Part shown: in pieces, positions 12,141-46,887 of the stretch | Layout: each line of letters opens with the position of its first letter | Position numbering within the stretch: the stretch's first letter is position 1 | NCBI GenBank assembly: GCA_963795165.1 | Contig: CAWCGT010000001.1 | Coordinates: forward strand, 1,538,048-1,602,047 | Length of the DNA stretch: 64,000 nt | Reading direction: 5' to 3' | DNA from: an uncultured Microthrixaceae bacterium | Lineage (GTDB): Bacteria > Actinomycetota > Acidimicrobiia > Acidimicrobiales > VFJN01 | Notes under the pieces: model-generated | Databases searched by the model: none | The model's input: only the letters and a program-made list of their open reading frames with translations | What the model was told of the DNA's origin: nothing | Position numbers and translations under genes: made by a program

Positions 12141-12214
12141 TGGAGGTGATGGGACTCGAACCCACGGCCTCTTCGATGCGACCGAAGCGCTCTAGCCAAC
12201 TGAGCTACACCCCC
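12141..12214 (-). tRNA. tRNA-Ala (anticodon CGC)
   Basis: 74-nt cloverleaf read on the minus strand: GGGGGTG acceptor with G3:U70, D arm GCTC/GAGC, anticodon loop GTCGCAT, T arm GTGGG TTCGAGT CCCAT, discriminator A. CCA is encoded at 12138-12140. Confidence 0.9.
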
Positions 12215-26814: not shown

Positions 26815-27873
26815 TCACCGCTCCGTCGACCACCAGATCGGCCCCCCGTGGTACCCGGAGGTGGCCAGGAGGCGCTCGTCGCCGTGAGGCCAGGTCGTCA
26901 GGCGGAGCTCCGCCCGCTCGCCGCCAGGCTCCAGGCGCAGCCAGGCCAGCGGGGCAGCACCGGTGGCCCGTTGGCCCGCCTCGGCCAGCGCCTGCCGAAA
27001 CCGCCGTCGCTGAGCGGCGGAGAGGTACTGGGCCACGATCGAGTGCACCACCACGGTGGCCATCCCCGGGCGAGGCTCGGCGAGCCGCCTCGCCACCCAA
27101 TCGTCGGCGTCGGCCTCCTCCACGGTGGCGGGCACCCGGCGGGCGACGCCGATGGCGGCCTCCAAGCGACGGACGCGCTCCAGCTGGTCGGGCCACACGT
27201 ATGACAGCAAGGTCAGCCGGCCCTCCGGGGTGGTGGCATCGACGGGGTTGCGATCGCACCCCGCCCGCTCGGCCACGTCGAAGGCGGCCGGGAGCTCAGG
27301 CGGTTCGCCCTCCCACAACCCCGCGAAGCGGACGGGGCTGTCGGGATCGCCGGTCACCCCCCGGCCCGTGTCGTAGGCGTAGTGGTCCCACCGGAGGTTG
27401 AGACCGGCACTGGCCCCCACCTCGAGGACGCGGAGGGGAAGGTGCGTGCGACGAGCCACGGCTGCGTAGCCGCCCACCAGCACAGCCGAGCGGCCCACCT
27501 CGTTGGTCTGCACGCCGTCCTCGATCCGCCGATCGATCTCCGCCGCGTGCTCCTCCACCGTGGCCAGGAAGGCAGCCTCGGCTCCATCGCCCGGCTGGCC
27601 TCCGGCCGACGGGTAGTGACCGGCCAGCGCGGGAGACCGTCCCTCCAGCACGATCCGGTGGACGGCGCCGAGGAAGCGCAGCGTGAGGGCCGAGCCCAGC
27701 GGATCTCCGACACGGCCGGTCAGCAGGGCCGTCGTGGGCCCGCCCCGTCGCAGGTCGGCCACCACGGCTCGCAGGACGAGCCCGTAGAGGGGGGACCCCT
27801 GACCAGCGCAGGCGTCGGCCTGGAACGCCACCACCTCGACCACCCGGTCGAGGTCGTCGTGCCCCTCAGCCAC
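26815..27873 (-). CDS. DUF2332 family protein
   Basis: 352-aa ORF resembling DUF2332 proteins (SPLYGLVLRAVVADL..., LEVGASAGLNLRWD...). Overlaps the cyclase gene end by 8 nt. Confidence 0.7.
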   Translation of the reverse strand: MAEGHDDLDRVVEVVAFQADACAGQGSPLYGLVLRAVVADLRRGGPTTALLTGRVGDPLGSALTLRFLGAVHRIVLEGRSPALAGHYPSAGGQPGDGAEAAFLATVEEHAAEIDRRIEDGVQTNEVGRSAVLVGGYAAVARRTHLPLRVLEVGASAGLNLRWDHYAYDTGRGVTGDPDSPVRFAGLWEGEPPELPAAFDVAERAGCDRNPVDATTPEGRLTLLSYVWPDQLERVRRLEAAIGVARRVPATVEEADADDWVARRLAEPRPGMATVVVHSIVAQYLSAAQRRRFRQALAEAGQRATGAAPLAWLRLEPGGERAELRLTTWPHGDERLLATSGYHGGPIWWSTER

Positions 27874-28669
27874 CTCGAGACACCGGGCACACCGACACCG
27901 CCTGCTCCACGCCCTTGAAGCTGCGCCGGCGGGCGCGACCGAACACCACCGATGGGAGGTCCCCCACCGCGTCGCGGGTGGTGGCAGTGGCCAGCACCTG
28001 ATCCCCCTTGGCCACGGAGGCCACGCGAGCCGCCACGTTCACGTCGTGGCCGATGAGGTCGTCGGCGGTGGCCACCACCTCACCGGTGTGCACCCCCGCC
28101 CGAAGGCGGAGGGCCTCCGGCGGCACCTCGATCAGCTCGAGGGCCGCCATCACAGCCGACTCGGCCGAAGGGAAGGAGAGCATCAGCCCATCGCCCAGCC
28201 GCTTGACCACCCGGCCGCCGCGGCTGCGCACGACCGGGCCGATCACCCGGTGGTGATCGGCCAGCAGGGCGAGGGCGGCATCGTCGCCGTGGCGGGACGT
28301 GAAGCGGGTGAAGCCCTCGAGGTCGGTGAACACGATCGACAGCGGGATCGGCCGCGTGGCCTCCTCGTCGCCACTGCGGTCGTAGGCCAACAGCTGCAAG
28401 GCGTTGAGGCCGATCGACCCCAGCGCCGACGGTCGCCGCTCCACGGACCGCTCGAGGAACCGATGGACGACGTCGAGGGCAGGGGCGGTGCGCATCGGGC
28501 GGTCGCCGGGGGCCTCGAGCCACGACCGGTCGACGAGCCCTACCTCCACGGCGGTGTCGGTGAGCTCCGGATCTCGCCGAAGCAGGTCGGCGGCGCGCTC
28601 GGCCAGCCCTCGCCGTACCGATCCCATGGCCGACTCACCCTTGGGTTGCACGTCGTCGGCTCCAGCCAC
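27866..28669 (-). CDS. class III adenylate/guanylate cyclase
   Basis: C-terminal cyclase homology domain: IVFTDLEGFTRFTSRHGDD...KRLGDGLMLSF...RAGVHTGEVV...GHDVNVAARV. The start could be ATG 28627 instead of 28669. Confidence 0.8.
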   Translation of the reverse strand: MAGADDVQPKGESAMGSVRRGLAERAADLLRRDPELTDTAVEVGLVDRSWLEAPGDRPMRTAPALDVVHRFLERSVERRPSALGSIGLNALQLLAYDRSGDEEATRPIPLSIVFTDLEGFTRFTSRHGDDAALALLADHHRVIGPVVRSRGGRVVKRLGDGLMLSFPSAESAVMAALELIEVPPEALRLRAGVHTGEVVATADDLIGHDVNVAARVASVAKGDQVLATATTRDAVGDLPSVVFGRARRRSFKGVEQAVSVCPVSRGG

Positions 28670-38332: not shown

Positions 38333-39175
38333 ATGCCCAACGTCTTCATCACCGGCGCGTCCACCGGCATCGGGGAGGCGACCGCCCTGCGTCTGGCCCG
38401 GCTGGGTCACCGGGTGTTCGCCGGTGTGCGTCAGGATGCCGACGGCGAGGCGCTGGCCAGCCAGGCTCCCGGGCGCATCGTGCCGGTGCGATGCGACGTG
38501 ACCGACGGCGGCCAGATCGCCGCCGCTCGGAAGGTGGTGGGCGACGAGGTGGGCGACGCCGGCCTCCAGGGCTTGATCAACAACGCCGGGGTGGCCGTCG
38601 GCGGCCCGCTGGAGCACCTGACCCTCGACCGCTGGCGGTGGCAGTTCGAGGTGAACGTGTTCGGGCAGATCGCGGTCACCCAGGCCTTCCTCGACCTGGT
38701 TCGGCAGGGCCGCGGCCGGATCAGCTTCACCGGCTCGATCGCCGGACGCACCGCCAACCCCATGCTCGGCCCCTACGCGGCGTCGAAGCACGCCGTCGAG
38801 GCCATCAGCCAGGCGCTTCGTGGAGAGCTCGAGCCGTGGGGCATCCACGTGTCGGTGGTGGAGCCGGGGGCCGTCAAGACCCCCATCTGGGACAAGGGTC
38901 GCCAGACGGCCGACGAGCTCGAGTCGGAGCTGGGTCCCGAGGTGGCGGCCAAGTACGCCGAGGGCGTGGCCTTCCTCCGGAAGGGCATCGACTACCAGGA
39001 CAACCGGGCCACCCCGCCTGAACAGGTGGCCGCCGCCTTCGAGCACGCCCTGTTCAGCGCTCGGCCGCGCAGCCAGTACCTGGTGGGCGTGGACGCCAAG
39101 CTGCTCGGCACCCTCGACCGTCTGCTCCCCCAGCGGACCCTCGATGCCCTGGTGAAGCGCGTCGGGCCCTCCTGA
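38333..39175 (+). CDS. SDR-family oxidoreductase
   Basis: 280 aa. TGASTGIGEA, NNAG, YAASKHA. Confidence 0.85.
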   Translation: MPNVFITGASTGIGEATALRLARLGHRVFAGVRQDADGEALASQAPGRIVPVRCDVTDGGQIAAARKVVGDEVGDAGLQGLINNAGVAVGGPLEHLTLDRWRWQFEVNVFGQIAVTQAFLDLVRQGRGRISFTGSIAGRTANPMLGPYAASKHAVEAISQALRGELEPWGIHVSVVEPGAVKTPIWDKGRQTADELESELGPEVAAKYAEGVAFLRKGIDYQDNRATPPEQVAAAFEHALFSARPRSQYLVGVDAKLLGTLDRLLPQRTLDALVKRVGPS

Positions 39176-39238
39176 CGGTGGCCGCAGGGCGTCGGGCGCC
39201 CGAGTACGGTCGATCCAAGACTGGGACGAAAGGCGATC

Positions 39239-41398
39239 GTGGATCTCACGGCGGCTGTGAGGACCAACGGCGACGATGAGGCGTGGGCGGCCCTCTTCAG
39301 CGCTCCGAAGAAGCGGCGGCGACGGGGCGCGCCCGACGTCTGGCAGGCAGTGTCGACGGTGGAGGATCCGCGTCCCCAGCTCCGCGCATCGGTGGAGGCG
39401 CGCTTCGTCCCGGTGCGCTGGGACGACGACTACTGGGTGGTGGGCGACCCCGAACGCCGCAAGCACTTCACCCTGGAGCCCTGGGAGTGGGAGCTGGCCC
39501 AGCGGATGGATGGCCAGCGCTCCTTGGAAGAGCTGGTGGCCCTGCGCCTAGAGCAGGACGGGGTGCTCGATCCCGACGCCGTGCGGGACCTCATCGCCCT
39601 CCTCCGGCACGGCGACATGCTCGAGGGTGGCAACCGCGACGTCTGGCGCACGCTCGCCGAGGCCACCACCCCGCCGAGGACGCTGCGCCAGCGGGTGATC
39701 GCCACCCTGGCCAGCTTGAAGGTGGAGTGGACAGGCGCCGAGGCCCTGGTCGCCGCCCTCTACCGGACGGTGCTGCGGCCGCTCTTCGTCCCCTGGCTAC
39801 AACCCATCCTGATCGCCGTGGCCGTGGCGGGCCTGGCGGCCTTCGGGTGGATGGCAGCCGATGGCCGGCTCACCCTCAGCCAGGGAAGCGTGACCTCCGG
39901 TGTCTTCCTGATCGTGCTCTCGCTGTTCATGACCTTCGTGCACGAGCTGGGCCACGCCGCCTACCTCGTGCACCGGCGCCGGCGGGTGTACAGCGCCGGG
40001 TTCCTCCTCTACTTCGGATCCCCGGCCTTCTTCGTCGACTCCACCGACGGGCTGCTTCTGGAGCGGCGCGACCGGATCCGCCAGGCGTTCGCCGGTCCCT
40101 ACTACGAGATGGTCCTCGGGGGCGCCATCGCGCTGGTTGCCCTCGCCCTGCCTGCCGGGGGCGTGGCCGACACCATGCACGTGTTCATCCTGCTGCTCTA
40201 CTTCGGGGTCTTCCTGAACCTCATCCCGCTGCTGGAGCTGGATGGCTACTGGATCTTCGCGGAGCTCCTGGAGTCGCCCACGTTGCGCAGCCGGTCCTTC
40301 GAGTTCGTCCGCCACGAGCTCCCCACCCGGCTGTGGCGCCGCCAGCCCCTCCGCCGCCACGAGGTGTGGTTCACCTTCTACGTGGTCGTGGGCACCGCCT
40401 TCACCATCTGGTCGGTGTGGGTGGCCATCGTGTTCTGGCAGACCATGTTCGGGCCCATGGTGAGCGGCCTGTGGAACGGCGGCACCACCAGCCGGGTCAT
40501 CCTGGTGGTGGGCGCCGCCGCCCTGGCCGGACCGGCCGTGCAGGGGGCGGCCAAGCTCACCCGCAACCTCCTGGCCCGGGCGACCCAGGCGGCGGCCGAC
40601 GTGCGCTTCCGGTTCGAGACGAGCTGGCGGGTGGAGGCGGCGCTCCTCCTCGACGACTCGCCGGTGTTCGGCGACCTGCCGGAGGAGACGTTGAGCGACC
40701 TGTCGGGTCGGCTCCGACGCCGCCGGATCGATCCCGGCGAGGCGGTGTTCCGGCAGGGCGACCGGGCCGACGCCTTCTACGTCGTGCGGACCGGAACGCT
40801 CCAGGTGGTGTCCGAGACCGACCAGGACACCACCGTGATGGCCATCCTCCAGCGAGGCGACACCTTCGGCGAGCTGGGCCTGCTCGGCCACGCCGTGCGC
40901 CAGGCCACCGTGCGGGCTACCGCCCCGTCCGAGGTCTTCGTGGTGCTCGAGAACGACTTCGACCGGCTGCTCCGGACCGACGCCAGCCTCCCCACCGTCG
41001 CCCCCACCCTCACCGCGCTCGCCACCCTCGGAGCCCTCCCCCCCTTCGCCCGTCTCACCTCGGCCCGGCTGGCCGCCCTGCACCGGGCCGGCACCTGGCT
41101 CGACGTGGCCCCAGGCACCGCGGTGGTCAGCGAGGGCGAGGTGGGCGACGCCTTCTATGTGATCTCGTCCGGCCAGGCCGAGGTGAGACGGAAACGGCGG
41201 AAGCTGGGGACGCTCGGAGCCGGCGACGCCTTCGGGGAGCTGGCGCTGCAGAGCGGCGAGCCGCGGGCCGCCACCGTCACTGCCGTCACGCCGCTGCGCC
41301 TCTTCCAGGTGCCGCCGACCGCCTTCCGCCGGTTCCTGGCCGCCGATGCCCGCCCACGCGCCGTCGACGAGCCCGAGCAGCGGGTGATGAGCCATTGA
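39239..41398 (+). CDS. M50 (site-2-protease-like) membrane metalloprotease fused to two cyclic-nucleotide-binding domains
   Basis: 719-aa ORF. HELGH (HExxH) and NLIPLLELDG (NxxPxxxLDG) motifs sit in a polytopic core. Two C-terminal cNMP-binding domains (FGELGLL...RQATVRA and FGELAL...RAATVTA). An N-terminal segment (EPWEWELAQRMDGQRSLEELVALRLEQDGVLDPDAVRDLIALL) looks PqqD/RRE-like. Confidence 0.75.
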   Translation: MDLTAAVRTNGDDEAWAALFSAPKKRRRRGAPDVWQAVSTVEDPRPQLRASVEARFVPVRWDDDYWVVGDPERRKHFTLEPWEWELAQRMDGQRSLEELVALRLEQDGVLDPDAVRDLIALLRHGDMLEGGNRDVWRTLAEATTPPRTLRQRVIATLASLKVEWTGAEALVAALYRTVLRPLFVPWLQPILIAVAVAGLAAFGWMAADGRLTLSQGSVTSGVFLIVLSLFMTFVHELGHAAYLVHRRRRVYSAGFLLYFGSPAFFVDSTDGLLLERRDRIRQAFAGPYYEMVLGGAIALVALALPAGGVADTMHVFILLLYFGVFLNLIPLLELDGYWIFAELLESPTLRSRSFEFVRHELPTRLWRRQPLRRHEVWFTFYVVVGTAFTIWSVWVAIVFWQTMFGPMVSGLWNGGTTSRVILVVGAAALAGPAVQGAAKLTRNLLARATQAAADVRFRFETSWRVEAALLLDDSPVFGDLPEETLSDLSGRLRRRRIDPGEAVFRQGDRADAFYVVRTGTLQVVSETDQDTTVMAILQRGDTFGELGLLGHAVRQATVRATAPSEVFVVLENDFDRLLRTDASLPTVAPTLTALATLGALPPFARLTSARLAALHRAGTWLDVAPGTAVVSEGEVGDAFYVISSGQAEVRRKRRKLGTLGAGDAFGELALQSGEPRAATVTAVTPLRLFQVPPTAFRRFLAADARPRAVDEPEQRVMSH

Positions 41399-41429
41399 CC
41401 ACCACGACGACCCCCTGGAGGGATCCCCC

Positions 41430-41639
41430 ATGGACTGCTGGCACTGTCGAAGGACGGCGGTCGGGGCCTGCCGCTTCTGCGGCCGCGGCATCTGCGAGGA
41501 CCACGTGCGAACACAGCCGTTCGTGCTCAGCCTGTACAGCCGCGACGGCACCCCCAACGCCCTCGTGGTGGACGACGCCCTCGCGTGCGGCCACTGCCAC
41601 CCCCGGCCCGAGCCCGTGCCCCTCCCCGAGCTGGCCTGA
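41430..41639 (+). CDS. DUF2180-like cysteine-rich small protein
   Basis: 69 aa with GGAGGG 9 nt upstream. CxxC...CxxC...CxxC pattern (MDCWHCRR..CRFCGRGICEDH...ACGHCHP). Confidence 0.6.
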   Translation: MDCWHCRRTAVGACRFCGRGICEDHVRTQPFVLSLYSRDGTPNALVVDDALACGHCHPRPEPVPLPELA

Positions 41640-41645
41640 ACCCGT

Positions 41646-41661
41646 TGTGATGAACATCACG
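41646..41661. promoter_or_regulatory. CRP/cAMP-receptor-like binding site TGTGA-N6-TCACG
   Basis: TGTGATGAACATCACG matches 9/10 of the TGTGA-N6-TCACA consensus. It lies 86 bp upstream of the small ORF start at 41747 and 300 bp upstream of the Crp/Fnr gene. It is part of the longer inverted repeat GTTGTGATG-AA-CATCACGAC. Confidence 0.4.
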
Positions 41662-41746
41662 ACGCGAAGGGGCCAAACGGCACAACCCGGGCACCGCCTG
41701 GAGGCGCATGCTGCAGGCAACAACTCGCCCAACCAAGGAGCGCACG

Positions 41747-41884
41747 ATGTCCGACAAGAAGATCACCCCGAAGGCCGCCGACAAGACCAGCGCCGCCACC
41801 GACGAGGACAAGGCCACCACCCGCATCACCAAGAAGTTCGTCAAGCGGACGGTGCAGCGCAAGCAGCTTCGCAACAAGCTGTAG
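41747..41884 (+). CDS. unannotated 45-aa lysine/arginine-rich small protein
   Basis: Below the track size cutoff. ATG 41747 preceded by AAGGAG (41735-41740, 6-nt spacer). MSDKKITPKAADKTSAATDEDKATTRITKKFVKRTVQRKQLRNKL*, stop TAG 41882-41884. GC3-rich codons. A strong hairpin follows. Confidence 0.45.
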   Translation: MSDKKITPKAADKTSAATDEDKATTRITKKFVKRTVQRKQLRNKL

Positions 41885-41917
41885 TCGAGCGTTCGGGCCT
41901 CCGGGTCCGACGCACGC

Positions 41918-41954
41918 CGCCGACAGGGCACGGCTCGGCCGTGCCCTGTCGGCG
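41918..41954 (+). terminator. perfect 17-bp stem / 3-nt loop hairpin
   Basis: CGCCGACAGGGCACGGC-TCG-GCCGTGCCCTGTCGGCG, 34 nt after the small-ORF stop and 15 nt before the Crp/Fnr start. No U-tract, as is common in high-GC actinobacteria. Confidence 0.5.
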
Positions 41955-41969
41955 CGACCGGAGCCCACG

Positions 41970-42692
41970 ATGGCGGTGACCTCCGGTTCCGCCAGCATCG
42001 GCGCCCGCGACCTTGCCGTCGCGCTGGCGGAGGTGCCGATGCTGGCGGGGGTGCCGGCCGACGCCCTGAAGCGGCTGGCCGCCGTCGGGCACGTCAAGCA
42101 GTACCGGCGCAGCAGCTACCTCTTCCACCAAGGCGACGAGGCCCCCGACGTTGTCGTCCTCTGCGAGGGCCGGGTGGAGATCTCCTCCACCTCCCCCAGC
42201 GGCGACCGGCAGCTGCACACCGTCCTGTCGCCACCCCAGCTCTTCGGTGAGCTCGGCGTCCTCGCCGAGCAACCCCGAGGGTCCGGTGCCTTCGCTGTCA
42301 CCGACTGCCTGGTCCTGTCGATCCCTGCCGACGCCTTCCTCGCCTTCCTCGACGACACCCCGCCGGCGGCCCGGGCGGTGCTGCGAGCCCTCGCCCAGCA
42401 GGTGCAGGCCTTCGGTGGGCTGATCGACGACCTCCTCTTCCTCGATCTCCGTGGCCGCGTGGCCAAGCGCCTTCTGGGGCTGGTGACCCCCGCCTTCGCC
42501 GACCTCCCCCCGGACGGCACCAAGGTGCCCACCGTCACCCAGACCGACCTGGCCAGCCTGGCCGGCGGCTCCCGGGAGAACGTGAGCCGCATCCTGTCGG
42601 AGTTCGTGCGGCGGGGGCTCCTCGAGCGGGTGGGCCGAGGCCAGTTCGTCCTGGCCGACGTGGAGGCCCTCCGCCGGGCCGCCCAGCTCTGA
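41970..42692 (+). CDS. Crp/Fnr-family transcriptional regulator
   Basis: 240 aa. N-terminal cNMP-binding domain (FGELGVL...) and C-terminal HTH (SRENVSRILSEFVRRGLL). Confidence 0.85.
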   Translation: MAVTSGSASIGARDLAVALAEVPMLAGVPADALKRLAAVGHVKQYRRSSYLFHQGDEAPDVVVLCEGRVEISSTSPSGDRQLHTVLSPPQLFGELGVLAEQPRGSGAFAVTDCLVLSIPADAFLAFLDDTPPAARAVLRALAQQVQAFGGLIDDLLFLDLRGRVAKRLLGLVTPAFADLPPDGTKVPTVTQTDLASLAGGSRENVSRILSEFVRRGLLERVGRGQFVLADVEALRRAAQL

Positions 42693-42756
42693 CCCGCCGA
42701 CGCGGCCCGGAACCAGCCCGGAGGCGGCAGCACGGCCGCTGCCGTAGGTTCGCAGC

Positions 42757-43515
42757 GTGAGCTTCTCGGTGGCGGCGGAGTCCTACGACCGGTTCATGGG
42801 GCGGTACTCGGTGCCCCTCGGTCCCCGGTTCGCAGATCTGGCCGGGGTCGTCTCCGGCCAGCGGGTGGTGGACGTCGGATGCGGGCCAGGGGCGCTCACG
42901 GCCGAGCTGGTGTCCCGGGTGGGCCCTGGATCGGTGGCGGCCGTCGACCCGTCGGAGCCGTTCGTCGCCGCCGCCCGGGAGCGGCACCCCGACGTCGATG
43001 TGCGCCACGCCCGGGCCGAGGAGCTCCCCTTCGAGGACGACGCGTTCGACGTCGCTGTCGCCCAGCTCGTCGTGCACTTCATGGCTGACCCGGTGGCCGG
43101 ACTGCGCGAGATGCGGCGGGTGACGCGCCCCAATGGGGTGGTGGCAGCGTGCGTCTGGGACTACCAGGGTGGCACGAGCCCCCTCAGCCCGTTCTGGGCG
43201 GCCGCCCACCGCTTCGATGCGGCCGTGCAGGACGAGTCCAGCCTGGCTGGAGCGCGCCGAGGGCACCTCACCGAGCTGTTCGGGGCCGCCGGCCTCCACG
43301 ACGTGGAGGAGACCCTCCTGTCGTCGCAGGTGGAGCACCCCACCTTCGACGACTGGTGGGAGCCCTTCACGCTCGGCGTCGGACCCGCCGGGGCCTTCAC
43401 GGCGAGCCTCGACGAGGCTGGCCGAGCCCGGCTACGAGCGCTGTGCCAGGAAACGATGCCGTCGGCACCCTTCACGCTGACGGCGAGCGCCTGGGCCGCT
43501 CGCGGCCGCACCTGA
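42757..43515 (+). CDS. class I SAM-dependent methyltransferase
   Basis: 252 aa. Motif I VVDVGCGPG. Typical Methyltransf_11 sequence. Confidence 0.85.
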   Translation: MSFSVAAESYDRFMGRYSVPLGPRFADLAGVVSGQRVVDVGCGPGALTAELVSRVGPGSVAAVDPSEPFVAAARERHPDVDVRHARAEELPFEDDAFDVAVAQLVVHFMADPVAGLREMRRVTRPNGVVAACVWDYQGGTSPLSPFWAAAHRFDAAVQDESSLAGARRGHLTELFGAAGLHDVEETLLSSQVEHPTFDDWWEPFTLGVGPAGAFTASLDEAGRARLRALCQETMPSAPFTLTASAWAARGRT

Positions 43516-43919: not shown

Positions 43920-45227
43920 GTGGGGGACGGTTGGGGTGTGCCCCACATCACTGCCCCGGCGTTTGTGGGCGGCCACAATTGGCCCGTGGACGACCCGTGG
44001 CGCTACCTGGGTGCCGCGCTCTCTGCCCGGCGGGCGGCGTTGCACAACGATCTCCGAGACGCAGTCGAGTCTGAGGTGGCCGACTTCCGCTTCACCGACC
44101 CGGCCGCGGAGGAGCGGGCCTTCCAGCTGCGGGAGGCGATCATCGACGCGGAGATCGCCACCCTCTCCTCCGGCGACGTACCGCCGCTGCGGTTCATGGT
44201 GGACCTCGGCCGAGCGGTGGGCCACACGCGCCTCCCGCTCGAGCACCACTTCACGGCGCACCGGGCGGCGTACCCCCTGCTCCTCGACGCGGCGCTGGAA
44301 GCCGCCCGTGCGTGGCCTCCCGACGACGTCGCCGAGCTGGTGCGGCGCCACAACCAGTACGCGACGGCCACGACCGAAGCGTTCGTCGAGGGCTACGTCG
44401 AGTCGCGTGAGGCCGACGTGGTCGACAACCCTCGTGCCGCTCGCCGCTTCCTCGACGAGATCCTCACCACCCGCGGCGGGTGGACGGCCAGCGCGACGCG
44501 GCAGGCCGCCACCCTCGGGATGACCGAGCACACGCCGTGCTGTGTCGTCGCTGGCAGCTGGGCGTCACTCGGGACGCTGCGAACCGACGCTCTCGCCCGT
44601 CGCCTCTCCGCCTGGTTGGCGATGGTTCCAGCCCCCAACCTGCTGGTCGCCGACCACCACGTCGACGGCGTGGTCCTCGGTGGCGACGGTGTGGCACGAG
44701 TGGTCGACACCCTCCGCGCCGCAGTCGACGCCCTGCGCTCCGACGGCGTGGTGGGACTGCGCGTGGGGGTCAGCTCCATCCTGGAGGCTGGTCAGGGGCT
44801 GGAGCTCGCCCGCGAGGCCCGCCTCGCCCACGATGCCACCACCGAGCACCGGCCCGTCGTCGACGCTGCCAACCTCGGCGTCCTGGAGTACCTGGTCGCC
44901 GTCGGAGGCGTCAACGCTGCGCACCTGGTCCCGGAAGGCGTCCGCAACCTCCACCGCGTGGCTGACCGCAACAGCCCGTCCGCTCGGGAGGTGCTCGCAC
45001 AGTGGCACGACCTGGACGGCGACCTCCGAGGGGTGGCCGCCCGTCTCCACTGTCACCCGAACACCATCCTCAACCGCCTCAGGACCGTGGCCGAGACGAG
45101 CGGCTTCGATCCCCGAACGCCTCGTGGGATCCTCACCCTCCTCGTGGGTCTCGCCACGCTCGACCATGCGTCCGTACCCGGCGGGCATGGCGGCGGACTG
45201 CCTCCGGTCCCACTCGGCCACGCATAG
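43920..45227 (+). CDS. PucR-family transcriptional regulator
   Basis: 435-aa ORF. C-terminal PucR-type HTH (LRGVAARLHCHPNTILNRLRTVAETSGFD). The start is uncertain (GTG 43986 is an alternative). Confidence 0.65.
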   Translation: MGDGWGVPHITAPAFVGGHNWPVDDPWRYLGAALSARRAALHNDLRDAVESEVADFRFTDPAAEERAFQLREAIIDAEIATLSSGDVPPLRFMVDLGRAVGHTRLPLEHHFTAHRAAYPLLLDAALEAARAWPPDDVAELVRRHNQYATATTEAFVEGYVESREADVVDNPRAARRFLDEILTTRGGWTASATRQAATLGMTEHTPCCVVAGSWASLGTLRTDALARRLSAWLAMVPAPNLLVADHHVDGVVLGGDGVARVVDTLRAAVDALRSDGVVGLRVGVSSILEAGQGLELAREARLAHDATTEHRPVVDAANLGVLEYLVAVGGVNAAHLVPEGVRNLHRVADRNSPSAREVLAQWHDLDGDLRGVAARLHCHPNTILNRLRTVAETSGFDPRTPRGILTLLVGLATLDHASVPGGHGGGLPPVPLGHA

Positions 45228-45249
45228 GCTCTGACGCGGCCTTGTGGTC

Positions 45250-45397
45250 ATGGCTGACCCGGTGGCGGGACTGCGCGAGATGCGGCGGGCCACTCGCCCC
45301 GGTGGGGTGGTGGCAGCGTGCGTGTGGGACCACCATGGTGGCACCAGACGCCTCAGTGCCCGGAGACGCTGCAATCCGCGCCCTTCACGCTGACGGC
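45250..45397 (+). pseudogene. degenerate partial copy of the 42757-43515 methyltransferase gene
   Basis: 45250-45362 aligns to 43081-43192 at about 90% identity (ATGGCTGACCCGGTGGC.GGACTGCGCGAGATGCGGCGGG...GTGGTGGCAGCGTGCGT.TGGGAC). 45381-45397 (CCCTTCACGCTGACGGC) is identical to 43468-43484. The N-terminal third and the middle of the gene are missing. Confidence 0.65.
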
Positions 45398-46032
45398 AAG
45401 CCGGCACGGTCGCCGGGAGGTTCTCTCCCACGGATGTTGAGGAGCGTGGTGCTCAGCGCCACGAAGGTGTCGATGAAGCGCTCGTCGGAGAGCCCGAGCG
45501 GCGGTGCGCCGAAGCTCCAGGTCGAGCGTCGCAGGTTGATGAGGCCGCCGATGAGCAGCACTGCGAGGGCTTCGTTGTCGATGCGTTGGTCGGTGATCGT
45601 GGCGGTCCATCGTTCGATGAGCGACGCCGCGACTCGGTAGCCGCGATCGGACACGCCGGTCCGCATCCGATCGCGTAGTTCGGGGAGTCGGTCTCCTTCT
45701 CGTTCGATGACGTGGGTGATGGTGCGTTCACGGTCGAGTTCCGCGAGCAGCCATCGCATGACTGCCTCGATCTCGGCTGCGGGCTCCGTGAGTGGTGAAG
45801 CGGAGAGGTCGATCTCGACCTCGGCGATCGAGGCGAGGTGTCGCTCCAATCCAGCCTCGAGCACTGCCAGCTTCGAATCGAAGTACTTGTACAGCGCTCC
45901 ACTGCGCGGCGCGAGCCCCGCACCGGCCTCGATGTCGCCGACACTCACCCCAGCGAAGCCGCGCTCGGCGACCAGTTCGAGCGTGGCATCGATGAGCCGA
46001 TCTCGCGTCTGATGCAACCCCGACTTGACCAT
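45385..46032 (-). CDS. TetR/AcrR-family transcriptional regulator
   Basis: ATG 46032 (MVKSGLHQTRDRLIDATLELVAERGFAGVSVGDIEAGAG...) within track ORF 45385..46443(-); 215 aa. GC is visibly lower than in the neighbouring genes. Confidence 0.85.
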   Translation of the reverse strand: MVKSGLHQTRDRLIDATLELVAERGFAGVSVGDIEAGAGLAPRSGALYKYFDSKLAVLEAGLERHLASIAEVEIDLSASPLTEPAAEIEAVMRWLLAELDRERTITHVIEREGDRLPELRDRMRTGVSDRGYRVAASLIERWTATITDQRIDNEALAVLLIGGLINLRRSTWSFGAPPLGLSDERFIDTFVALSTTLLNIRGREPPGDRAGLPSA

Positions 46033-46814: not shown

Positions 46815-46887
46815 GCCCTCGTAGCTCAGGGGATAGAGCATCGGTTTCCTAAACCGTGCGTCGCAGGTTCGAATCCTGCCGAGGGCG
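46815..46887 (+). tRNA. tRNA-Arg (anticodon CCT)
   Basis: 73-nt cloverleaf: acceptor GCCCTCG/CGAGGGC, D arm GCTC-AGGGGATA-GAGC, anticodon loop TTCCTAA, T arm GCAGG-TTCGAAT-CCTGC, discriminator G. CCA is not encoded. Confidence 0.9.

Follow-up and report, generated by a model that had tools for sequence, protein, structure and literature searches.

A conserved four-gene cassette of uncultured Actinomycetota encodes a site-2-protease-like protein with tandem cyclic-nucleotide-binding domains and is a candidate cyclic-nucleotide output module

We analyzed a 64-kb stretch of DNA from an uncultured Microthrixaceae bacterium (the window), which has ~72% G+C, as in actinobacteria. Positions 39239-42692 of the window contain four open reading frames (ORFs), here called A, B, C and D, all on the plus strand. 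A preliminary description of this DNA had proposed a compact unit of four co-oriented genes centered on a membrane protease, and the four ORFs are present as described. The 719-, 69- and 45-amino-acid (aa) genes are also found in an independent gene call from the public assembly of the same DNA. The four genes and two features that lie between them are as follows.

39239..41398, plus strand: gene A, a 719-aa protein with a RiPP recognition element (RRE; RiPP, a peptide that is ribosomally synthesized and modified post-translationally), an M50 site-2-protease (S2P) core and two cyclic nucleoside monophosphate (cNMP)-binding domains; AlphaFold pLDDT 77.7
41430..41639, plus strand: gene B, a 69-aa DUF2180-like protein with eight conserved metal ligands
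41646..41661, plus strand: putative CRP-type operator, TGTGATGAACATCACG, just after the B stop codon and upstream of C
41747..41884, plus strand: gene C, a 45-aa polycationic small protein, MSDKKITPKAADKTSAATDEDKATTRITKKFVKRTVQRKQLRNKL, with its ATG at 41747 and a stop codon that ends at 41884
~41915..41956, plus strand: near-perfect GC-rich hairpin between C and D, dG -41 to -49.5 kcal/mol
41970..42692, plus strand: gene D, a 240-aa Crp/Fnr-family regulator with the recognition helix SRENVSR

A per-species genome scan returned 219 stretches that encode A. All counts of loci given here refer to the best 80 of these (41-46% identical to A; 1.39 Mb in total), most of which are labeled as metagenome-assembled genomes of Actinomycetota or Actinomycetes. 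The window's own genome is outside the 80 loci, where the best match is 46% identical. In a protein collection clustered at 90%, at least 120 full-length homologues of the same size as A (query coverage at least 91%) were found among 480 matches with E≤1e-10. Nearly all of them come from metagenomes, and the fullest names that they carry are "CRP-like cAMP-binding protein/Zn-dependent protease" and "putative peptide zinc metalloprotease protein".

The gene order is invariant wherever it can be followed. B lies directly 3' of A, at a median distance of 46 nt, in 79/79 loci whose sequence goes on beyond A, and D lies downstream on the same strand in 76/76 loci that extend far enough (51-57% identity). 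A C-family ORF is placed between B and D in all 76 loci with D. Thus, the conservation of the small genes with the protease, on which the preliminary description had made its reading depend, was found in every testable locus (B 79/79, C 76/76, D 76/76). With 65-75% identity across loci, compared with 41-46% for A, B is better conserved than the protease itself. Based on the spacing between the two genes, A and B are probably co-transcribed, B also having its own Shine-Dalgarno (SD) sequence.

When the ORFs of 100 aa or more in the 80 loci, a size that B and C do not reach, were clustered all against all, only A and D proved universal. The next neighbors occur in less than half of the loci, and the frequent ones are housekeeping genes (trmD, rplS, lepB, rnhB, rimM, ffh and moaA). 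No cyclase, transporter or peptide-modifying (tailoring) enzyme, and no immunity gene, is among the conserved neighbors of the cassette in the 80 loci.

Gene A carries the following domains and motifs, all on the plus strand.

39371..39628: RRE, a PqqD-like winged helix (beta3-alpha3), residues ~45-130, from the model and Foldseek
39791..40618: six-helix M50/S2P membrane core, from motifs, hydropathy and the AlphaFold helices and hairpin
39941-39955: HELGH motif, residues 235-239
40010-40033: re-entrant beta-hairpin YFGSPAFF, from the AlphaFold model
40217-40246: NLIPLLELDG motif, residues 327-336
40646..41338: tandem cNMP-binding domains, CNB-A and CNB-B (Pfam cNMP_binding twice, E=1.6e-41)
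40865-40918: phosphate-binding cassette of CNB-A, FGELGLLGHAVRQATVRA, with E545 and R554
41231-41284: phosphate-binding cassette of CNB-B, FGELALQSGEPRAATVTA, with E667 and R676
41339..41395: C-terminal tail, residues 701-719, with the family pattern D-R-x-W/M-x-H-COOH

In the AlphaFold model, a beta3-alpha3 N-terminal domain is followed by six long hydrophobic helices, a long linker helix and two beta-barrel CNB domains. Based on the model and hydropathy, HELGH falls within the second transmembrane helix and NLIPLLELDG within the fourth, and the re-entrant beta-hairpin lies between the second and the third. The site-2-protease-type M50 core proposed for this protein is borne out by the position of both motifs inside predicted transmembrane helices. 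Residue invariance was assessed in an alignment of 38 homologues (alignment A1), in which the S2P zinc-site residues H235, E236, H239, N327, P330, E333, D335 and G336 are invariant, as is the FGSPAFF hairpin. The Pfam model Peptidase_M50 (PF02163) scores 22.8 bits on the A protein of the window against a cut-off of 27.2, and it is matched by all 38 aligned homologues, with a best E of 2.6e-9. Judged by its motifs, A is a catalytically intact S2P.

A matches the NCBIfam model daptide_HExxH (NF041824), which aligns with residues 60-442 over profile positions 13-377 of 379 (E=1.1e-47). The score of 163 bits is below the equivalog cut-off of 300 bits. A weaker match is to the YydH/LiaK epipeptide protease family (1e-9). 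From the AlphaFold model and hydropathy, we infer a topology in which the N terminus is inside, six helices cross the membrane and the C terminus is inside, which would place the RRE, the active-site entrance and the CNB domains in the cytoplasm. In many A orthologues the RRE is preceded by an additional hydrophobic helix at the N terminus (e.g., LILAAIVIAG...RQRR), which is absent from the window protein. The positive-inside residues that follow this helix are consistent with the N-in topology.

We modeled residues 42-136 alone with AlphaFold, using an alignment of 20 sequences (alignment A2). The model has a pLDDT of 89.6, with strands E12-16, E24-29 and E34-38 and helices H40-46, H55-66 and H71-83. 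The top of the Foldseek list of PDB structures for this model consists almost entirely of RRE proteins. It includes TbiB1 with its leader peptide (5v1u/5v1v; TM-score 0.62-0.67, probability 1.0), and further matches are PqqD (5sxy), LynD (4v1t), TruD (4bs9), a lasso peptide B1 protein (6jx3), TigE, TglI/TglHI and the sactipeptide synthase CteB. At the sequence level, the best match for the N terminus of A in a profile search of PDB sequences is weak (E=0.083) and falls on residues 46-91 of PaaA, an N-terminal region that we take to be the RRE of that protein. The Pfam PqqD model (PF05402) is weakly matched by only 2/38 A members, with a best E of 0.044. Weak sequence signal is usual for RREs, and the daptide peptidase family was itself discovered through its N-terminally fused RRE (daptide paper).

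The preliminary description had suspected a PqqD- or RRE-like winged helix at the N terminus. The Foldseek matches to solved RREs, together with the homology to the RRE-fused daptide peptidases, confirm that the N-terminal domain of A is an RRE at the level of fold and homology, and leader binding is predicted. The domain is acidic, with a net charge of -9 in the window protein and a family median of about -7.

The two C-terminal CNB domains are supported by the Pfam matches and by a fold like that of protein kinase A and protein kinase G (PKA/PKG). For residues ~470-700 of A, the best Foldseek matches are the tandem-CNB regulatory subunits of these kinases, at E of about 1e-17. Both domains have the FGE...R pattern of the phosphate-binding cassette, and the cNMP-contacting residues, whose absence the preliminary description had named as a refutation of its proposal, are invariant in the 38 sequences (E545/R554 and E667/R676). 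By motif, both domains are ligand-competent. The residue after the cassette Arg varies (A/T/N/Q/S), so that specificity for cAMP or cGMP cannot be called. The terminal His719 is invariant as well (38/38 sequences). This residue might serve as a zinc ligand, or as a pseudosubstrate plug that cNMP releases. By analogy with the inhibitor segment of PKA, the tail could act as such a plug of the zinc site.

Gene B was described as a Cys-rich protein with its own strong ribosome-binding site, and it indeed has a GGAGG sequence 9 nt 5' of its start. The Pfam match to DUF2180 (PF09947) is borderline (22.1 bits against a cut-off of 22.2) and covers only the N-terminal 28 residues; some orthologues have a precomputed PF09947 match or carry DUF2180 as their source name. 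The ligands C3, C6, C14, C17, C22, H25, C53 and C56 are invariant in the alignment of the family (alignment A3), which is enough for two zinc sites, and more distant relatives of ~71 aa have the Cys pattern in common. The acidic, Pro-rich C-terminal tail is also conserved, as PRPDPxxLPELD in the family. Among PDB sequences the best match to B is weak, to the C5HCH finger of NSD3 (E=0.09).

An exhaustive search of 1.84 billion cluster representatives with a hidden Markov model (HMM) of B found 171 relatives at E≤0.001, almost all of which are stand-alone proteins of ~70 aa. Two apparent fusions of A and B (P0277 and P0304, CNB plus B domain) run into out-of-frame Arg-rich stretches and look like frameshift artefacts. 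A full-text literature search for DUF2180 returned nothing relevant. The most likely role of B is that of an accessory subunit or adaptor of A with two zinc sites.

Gene C has an AAGGAG SD sequence 7 nt 5' of its start. A longer reading of 58 aa from 41708 has no ribosome-binding site. The N-terminal consensus of the family is M-A-(E/D)-K-K-I-x-P-K, with slight variants in four loci. A variable Ala/Ser/Lys-rich spacer comes next, and then a second motif with the pattern (A/P)A(T/A)RV(T/S)K(K/R), similar to AATRVTKR. The tail is hypervariable and is made of tandem basic repeats, such as (KRQT)n, (KKLSH)n, (RVK)n, (KAVHP)n, (SKALG)n, (KTGRAGL)n and (RSAT)n. The median length in the family is 48 aa and the median net charge is +13. 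A homologue search with C returned only the query itself, as the word index fails on a short, low-complexity query, and tblastn gave 8 hits for a protein that is too short and biased for this approach. Relatives of C were instead located in the loci by position and motif.

All 78 copies of C have an SD-like sequence and an open frame (start codon ATG in 58, GTG in 20). The motif is kept at the amino-acid level, with Lys in 77/78 copies, Pro in 78/78 by way of three codons, and Glu or Asp at the first position. In 78/78 copies the stop codon is followed, no more than 90 nt away, by a strong hairpin, with a median of -33.5 kcal/mol compared with -21 at control positions. The SD sequence, the amino-acid-level conservation and the downstream hairpin in all copies indicate, from sequence, that C is a genuine, separately punctuated small gene, and it is probably highly expressed. 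That the basic product binds nucleic acids or the ribosome would be a guess from its composition.

C is tandemly duplicated in six loci (L008, L012, L029, L034, L056 and L071). Each tandem copy has its own CRP-type box and terminator-like hairpin, and the repeat tails often differ between the copies. In the window, 41903-41909 and 41959-41965 form an outer stem of the hairpin, which can pair with the SD sequence of D (GGAG, 7 nt 5' of the start) and may damp the translation of D.

The small basic ORF was said to lie behind a near-consensus CRP site, and both the ORF, which the independent gene call also gives as 45 aa, and the site, which is conserved across loci, hold up. The operator TGTGATGAACATCACG is the sole site in the 64-kb window with at most one mismatch to TGTGA-N6-TCACA and the sole exact GTGA-N6-TCAC. 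When two mismatches are allowed the pattern is not enriched across the window (6 matches against 13 expected), and the significance of the box comes from its conservation across loci, not from the window count. In the 250 nt upstream of C, exact GTGA-N6-TCAC boxes occur at 6.96 per kb compared with 0.056 elsewhere in the loci, a ~124-fold difference. At least one exact box is present at 73/77 C genes; the numbers of C genes with 0, 1, 2 and 3 exact boxes are 4, 29, 29 and 16. The boxes form arrays with a spacing of mostly 22-24 bp, and degenerate boxes (GTGAC-N4-GNCAC) occur in register with these arrays in the B-C intergenic regions. A CATGAT-like motif is found ~45-50 nt 3' of the boxes (CATGCT at 41707-41712 in the window) and could be a -10 element.

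Scans of 39000-42900 for sigma-70 promoters and T-tract terminators found nothing, as expected for a sequence with 72% G+C. Rfam identified no known RNA in the B-D interval.

The last gene, D, is a Crp/Fnr regulator, as had been recognized. It matches the Pfam models cNMP_binding (1e-21) and HTH_Crp_2 (3.6e-15), with NCBIfam matches also, and has a CRP-like R-E-x-x-x-R recognition helix and the Glu/Arg-Ser of the phosphate-binding cassette. Among solved structures, M. tuberculosis CRP (E=5e-29) and the CRP/FNR-family regulator 3r6s (2e-27) are closest to it. The CRP-like match and the invariable linkage to the boxes suggest that D binds GTGA-N6-TCAC, and D may be a dedicated paralogue. The hairpin ends only ~14-18 nt before the D start codon; the expression of D therefore probably depends on read-through from the C promoter, and D would hence be autoregulated.

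One could ask whether C is a protein at all, or a leader ORF that with its hairpin attenuates the transcription or translation of D. We consider this very improbable. In its favor, C is directly upstream of D, with a very stable hairpin between them, no room for a separate D promoter and an outer stem that can sequester the SD of D. Against it, the conservation of two motifs at the amino-acid level is beyond codon composition, C has a strong SD, tandem C duplicates each have their own boxes and hairpin, and there is no obvious reason for Lys/Arg-codon attenuation of a CRP regulator.

The domain and synteny findings are firm. Based on these, we propose that the four-gene cassette, conserved in uncultured Actinomycetota, serves as an output module for cyclic nucleotides, with C as the substrate of A and with A gated by cNMP. 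We hold this reading tentatively, at a probability of roughly 0.45. D with cAMP would bind the box array just after B and control the C promoter. The acidic RRE of A would then capture C via its conserved N-terminal motif, as suggested by the electrostatic match between the RRE (median -7) and C (median +13), and A would cleave C at the membrane face. The protease would be turned on or off when cNMP occupies the tandem CNB domains, and B would act as the obligate zinc-finger partner of A. In such a scheme, one second messenger would set both the synthesis of C, via D, and its processing, via the CNB domains of A. The proposal allows either sense for the direction of regulation by D and by cNMP.

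Several points weigh against this proposal. The (D/E)LPELD end of the B tail resembles the daptide leader motif ELExMEAP, and B is more conserved than C and is paired with A. No cleavage-site signature, hydrophobic or otherwise, is obvious in the tail of C. For cleavage, S2Ps do not always need their nucleotide domains. A GTGA-N6-TCAC box is found within 1 kb upstream of A in only ~22/80 loci (e.g., L045, L007 and L018), which is ~6-fold over background, and none is present there in the window; thus, A and B may fall outside the regulon of D. Finally, D could be the general CRP of the organism and not a dedicated regulator.

The resemblance of the B tail to a daptide leader means that B could be the RRE ligand instead of C, and this is the main alternative. 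Here, the RRE would have B as its partner or ligand, docked through the PRPDPxxLPELD tail; B would act as a pseudo-substrate, an inhibitor or an adaptor and perhaps sense zinc or redox state. The true substrate would be elsewhere, e.g., a membrane protein, and C would be a mere CRP-induced effector. In favor of this role, B has the highest conservation in the module (65-75% identity, against 41-46% for A) and lies directly 3' of A. Little or no variation is seen in its eight metal ligands and its C-terminal tail, and this tail resembles the daptide leader motif, which related RREs recognize, in being acidic, hydrophobic and rich in Pro. Inhibition of S2Ps by small co-encoded proteins is known; BofA fills the active-site cleft of SpoIVFB (PMC9042235). 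However, the RRE is itself strongly acidic (median -7) and suits C, at +13, better than an acidic tail. C is present as invariably as B, its layout of conserved leader and variable tail is typical of RRE substrates, and no candidate membrane substrate is conserved nearby in the loci. We regard this alternative as unlikely.

The closest known systems in which an RRE is fused to such a core are the daptide peptidases MpaP/DapP and, more distantly, EpeP/YydH/LiaK. They have the same N-terminal RRE fused to an HExxH...LDG S2P core, and the homology between the daptide peptidases and A extends over both parts (365 of 379 profile positions). Daptide systems also encode a short conserved ORF nearby. 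The differences are that A has two extra C-terminal cNMP-binding domains, that the cassette, unlike daptide and epipeptide clusters, is linked with a Crp/Fnr regulator and a zinc-finger protein, and that C is a polar polycation without the C-terminal Thr that defines daptide precursors. None of the daptide genes for DUF-RRE, Fe-ADH, aminotransferase and methyltransferase is conserved beside A in the 80 loci. Assignment to a daptide or epipeptide cluster was rejected on the scores, which are under the cut-offs, and on the absence of class-defining genes from the conserved neighbors.

The cassette could nevertheless be a minimal RiPP- or bacteriocin-like cluster, in which A would remove the leader of C and might export the product, a secreted cationic antimicrobial, with D providing cAMP regulation and B an accessory or immunity function. 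A is homologous to the leader peptidases of daptides (1.1e-47) and epipeptides (LiaK/YydH, 1e-9), and there is a precedent for combined cleavage and export in EpeP, which is thought to do both (review PMC10885120). Precursor genes are also often conserved N-terminally, hypervariable C-terminally and at times tandem, as C is. Yet the conserved neighbors include no tailoring enzyme, ABC transporter or immunity gene, and the NCBIfam scores are far under the equivalog cut-offs (163 against 300). The C termini of C vary and thus have no invariant Thr as in daptides, and the tails, polycationic and polar as in (KRQT)n and (KKLSH)n, do not have the hydrophobic face of membrane-active peptides. Moreover, about half of the genomes have the cassette in the rimM-trmD translation cluster, a location that is atypical for accessory biosynthetic gene clusters. 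We consider the bacteriocin-like reading improbable, and, like the leader-ORF reading, less likely than that of B as the ligand. A RiPP biosynthetic gene cluster in the usual sense was rejected, since no modifying enzyme, export or immunity gene is conserved and the neighbors are housekeeping genes.

Among known systems, the S2Ps with CBS domains (SpoIVFB and mjS2P) are also close to A in architecture. SpoIVFB removes the N-terminal pro-sequence of Pro-sigmaK, which is a non-membrane-spanning substrate. It has six transmembrane helices, a re-entrant loop between the second and the third, an interdomain linker and a C-terminal CBS domain, and it captures Pro-sigmaK by beta-sheet augmentation (PMC11486902). 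A shares with these enzymes the six transmembrane helices, a re-entrant hairpin after HExxH, an interdomain linker helix and a cytosolic nucleotide module. In contrast, the sensor of A is a PKA-like tandem CNB and not a CBS domain, substrate docking is supplied by the RRE, and the cassette contains no sigma or anti-sigma factor.

The phosphate-binding cassettes of A are near-identical to those of PKA/PKG regulatory subunits (FGELAL....PRAATV.A). The CNB pair of A differs in being covalently attached to a membrane protease and not to a partner kinase, and in being followed by the invariant C-terminal His tail. D resembles M. tuberculosis CRP (Rv3676) and 3r6s in its two-domain layout, in the Glu/Arg-Ser of the phosphate-binding cassette and in its R-E-x-x-x-R helix, and the conserved boxes near C are of the TGTGA-N6-TCACA class, as for actinobacterial CRP. 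The match to M. tuberculosis CRP is moderate (E=5e-29), the genomic context is different, and D is always linked to A-B-C.

The preliminary description regarded the module as uncharacterized, and full-text literature searches found no description of the domain combination or of the cassette. The parts are known (RRE-fused M50 peptidases, nucleotide-sensing S2Ps, PKA-like CNB pairs and CRP regulators), and their combination looks to be undescribed. A bolder form of the proposal, which we consider rather doubtful, is that an RRE has been co-opted for signaling and that A is the first second-messenger-gated intramembrane protease. Transcription by a dedicated CRP would be combined with maturation or clearance, by the RRE-S2P-CNB protein, of a protamine-like C that acts on the nucleoid, the ribosome or another polyanion.

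If the proposal is correct, the cassette would represent a new class of bacterial cAMP output, in which a membrane-embedded protease is under direct allosteric control, and RRE domains would act outside natural-product biosynthesis. The way in which cytosolic nucleotide-binding domains regulate CBS-type S2Ps is still called enigmatic. The cassette is a compact system for S2P regulation, with its four genes, its defined operator and a 45-aa candidate substrate. C represents an unannotated small polycationic family with fast-evolving repeat tails in widespread uncultured soil Actinomycetota.

In approximately half of the related genomes, the cassette lies on the opposite strand between trmD-rplS-lepB-rnhB-DUF2469 and rimM...ffh. 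It thereby splits the usually contiguous rimM-trmD translation cluster (L012, L039, L050, L052, L056, L031 and ~30 others). The window copy has a context other than rimM-trmD, and some other loci are near moaA.

The preliminary description also drew attention to a class III adenylate cyclase at 27866-28669. The domain assignment stands (Guanylate_cyc, E=1.4e-14), but the link to the cassette does not, as the gene is on the minus strand and 11 kb away. Its membership of the unit was rejected because no cyclase is among the conserved neighbors of the cassette in other genomes. Other nearby genes of the window were also rejected as partners: the upstream cytochrome P450, ferredoxin and short-chain dehydrogenase/reductase genes have no matches in any of the 80 loci, and the downstream methyltransferase has weak, distant matches in 11 of 80 loci only.

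The methyltransferase gene (42757-43515) has a degenerate partial copy at 45248-45401, which appears to be the remnant of a gene. Two fragments abut in this copy; they are 89% and 83% identical to the gene and lie ~256 nt apart in the intact sequence. Between the two, at 43920-45227 on the plus strand and downstream of the methyltransferase, is a PucR-type regulator with HTH_30 and a GGDEF-like domain. The window has two tRNA genes, at 46815-46887 on the plus strand and at 12141-12214 on the minus strand.

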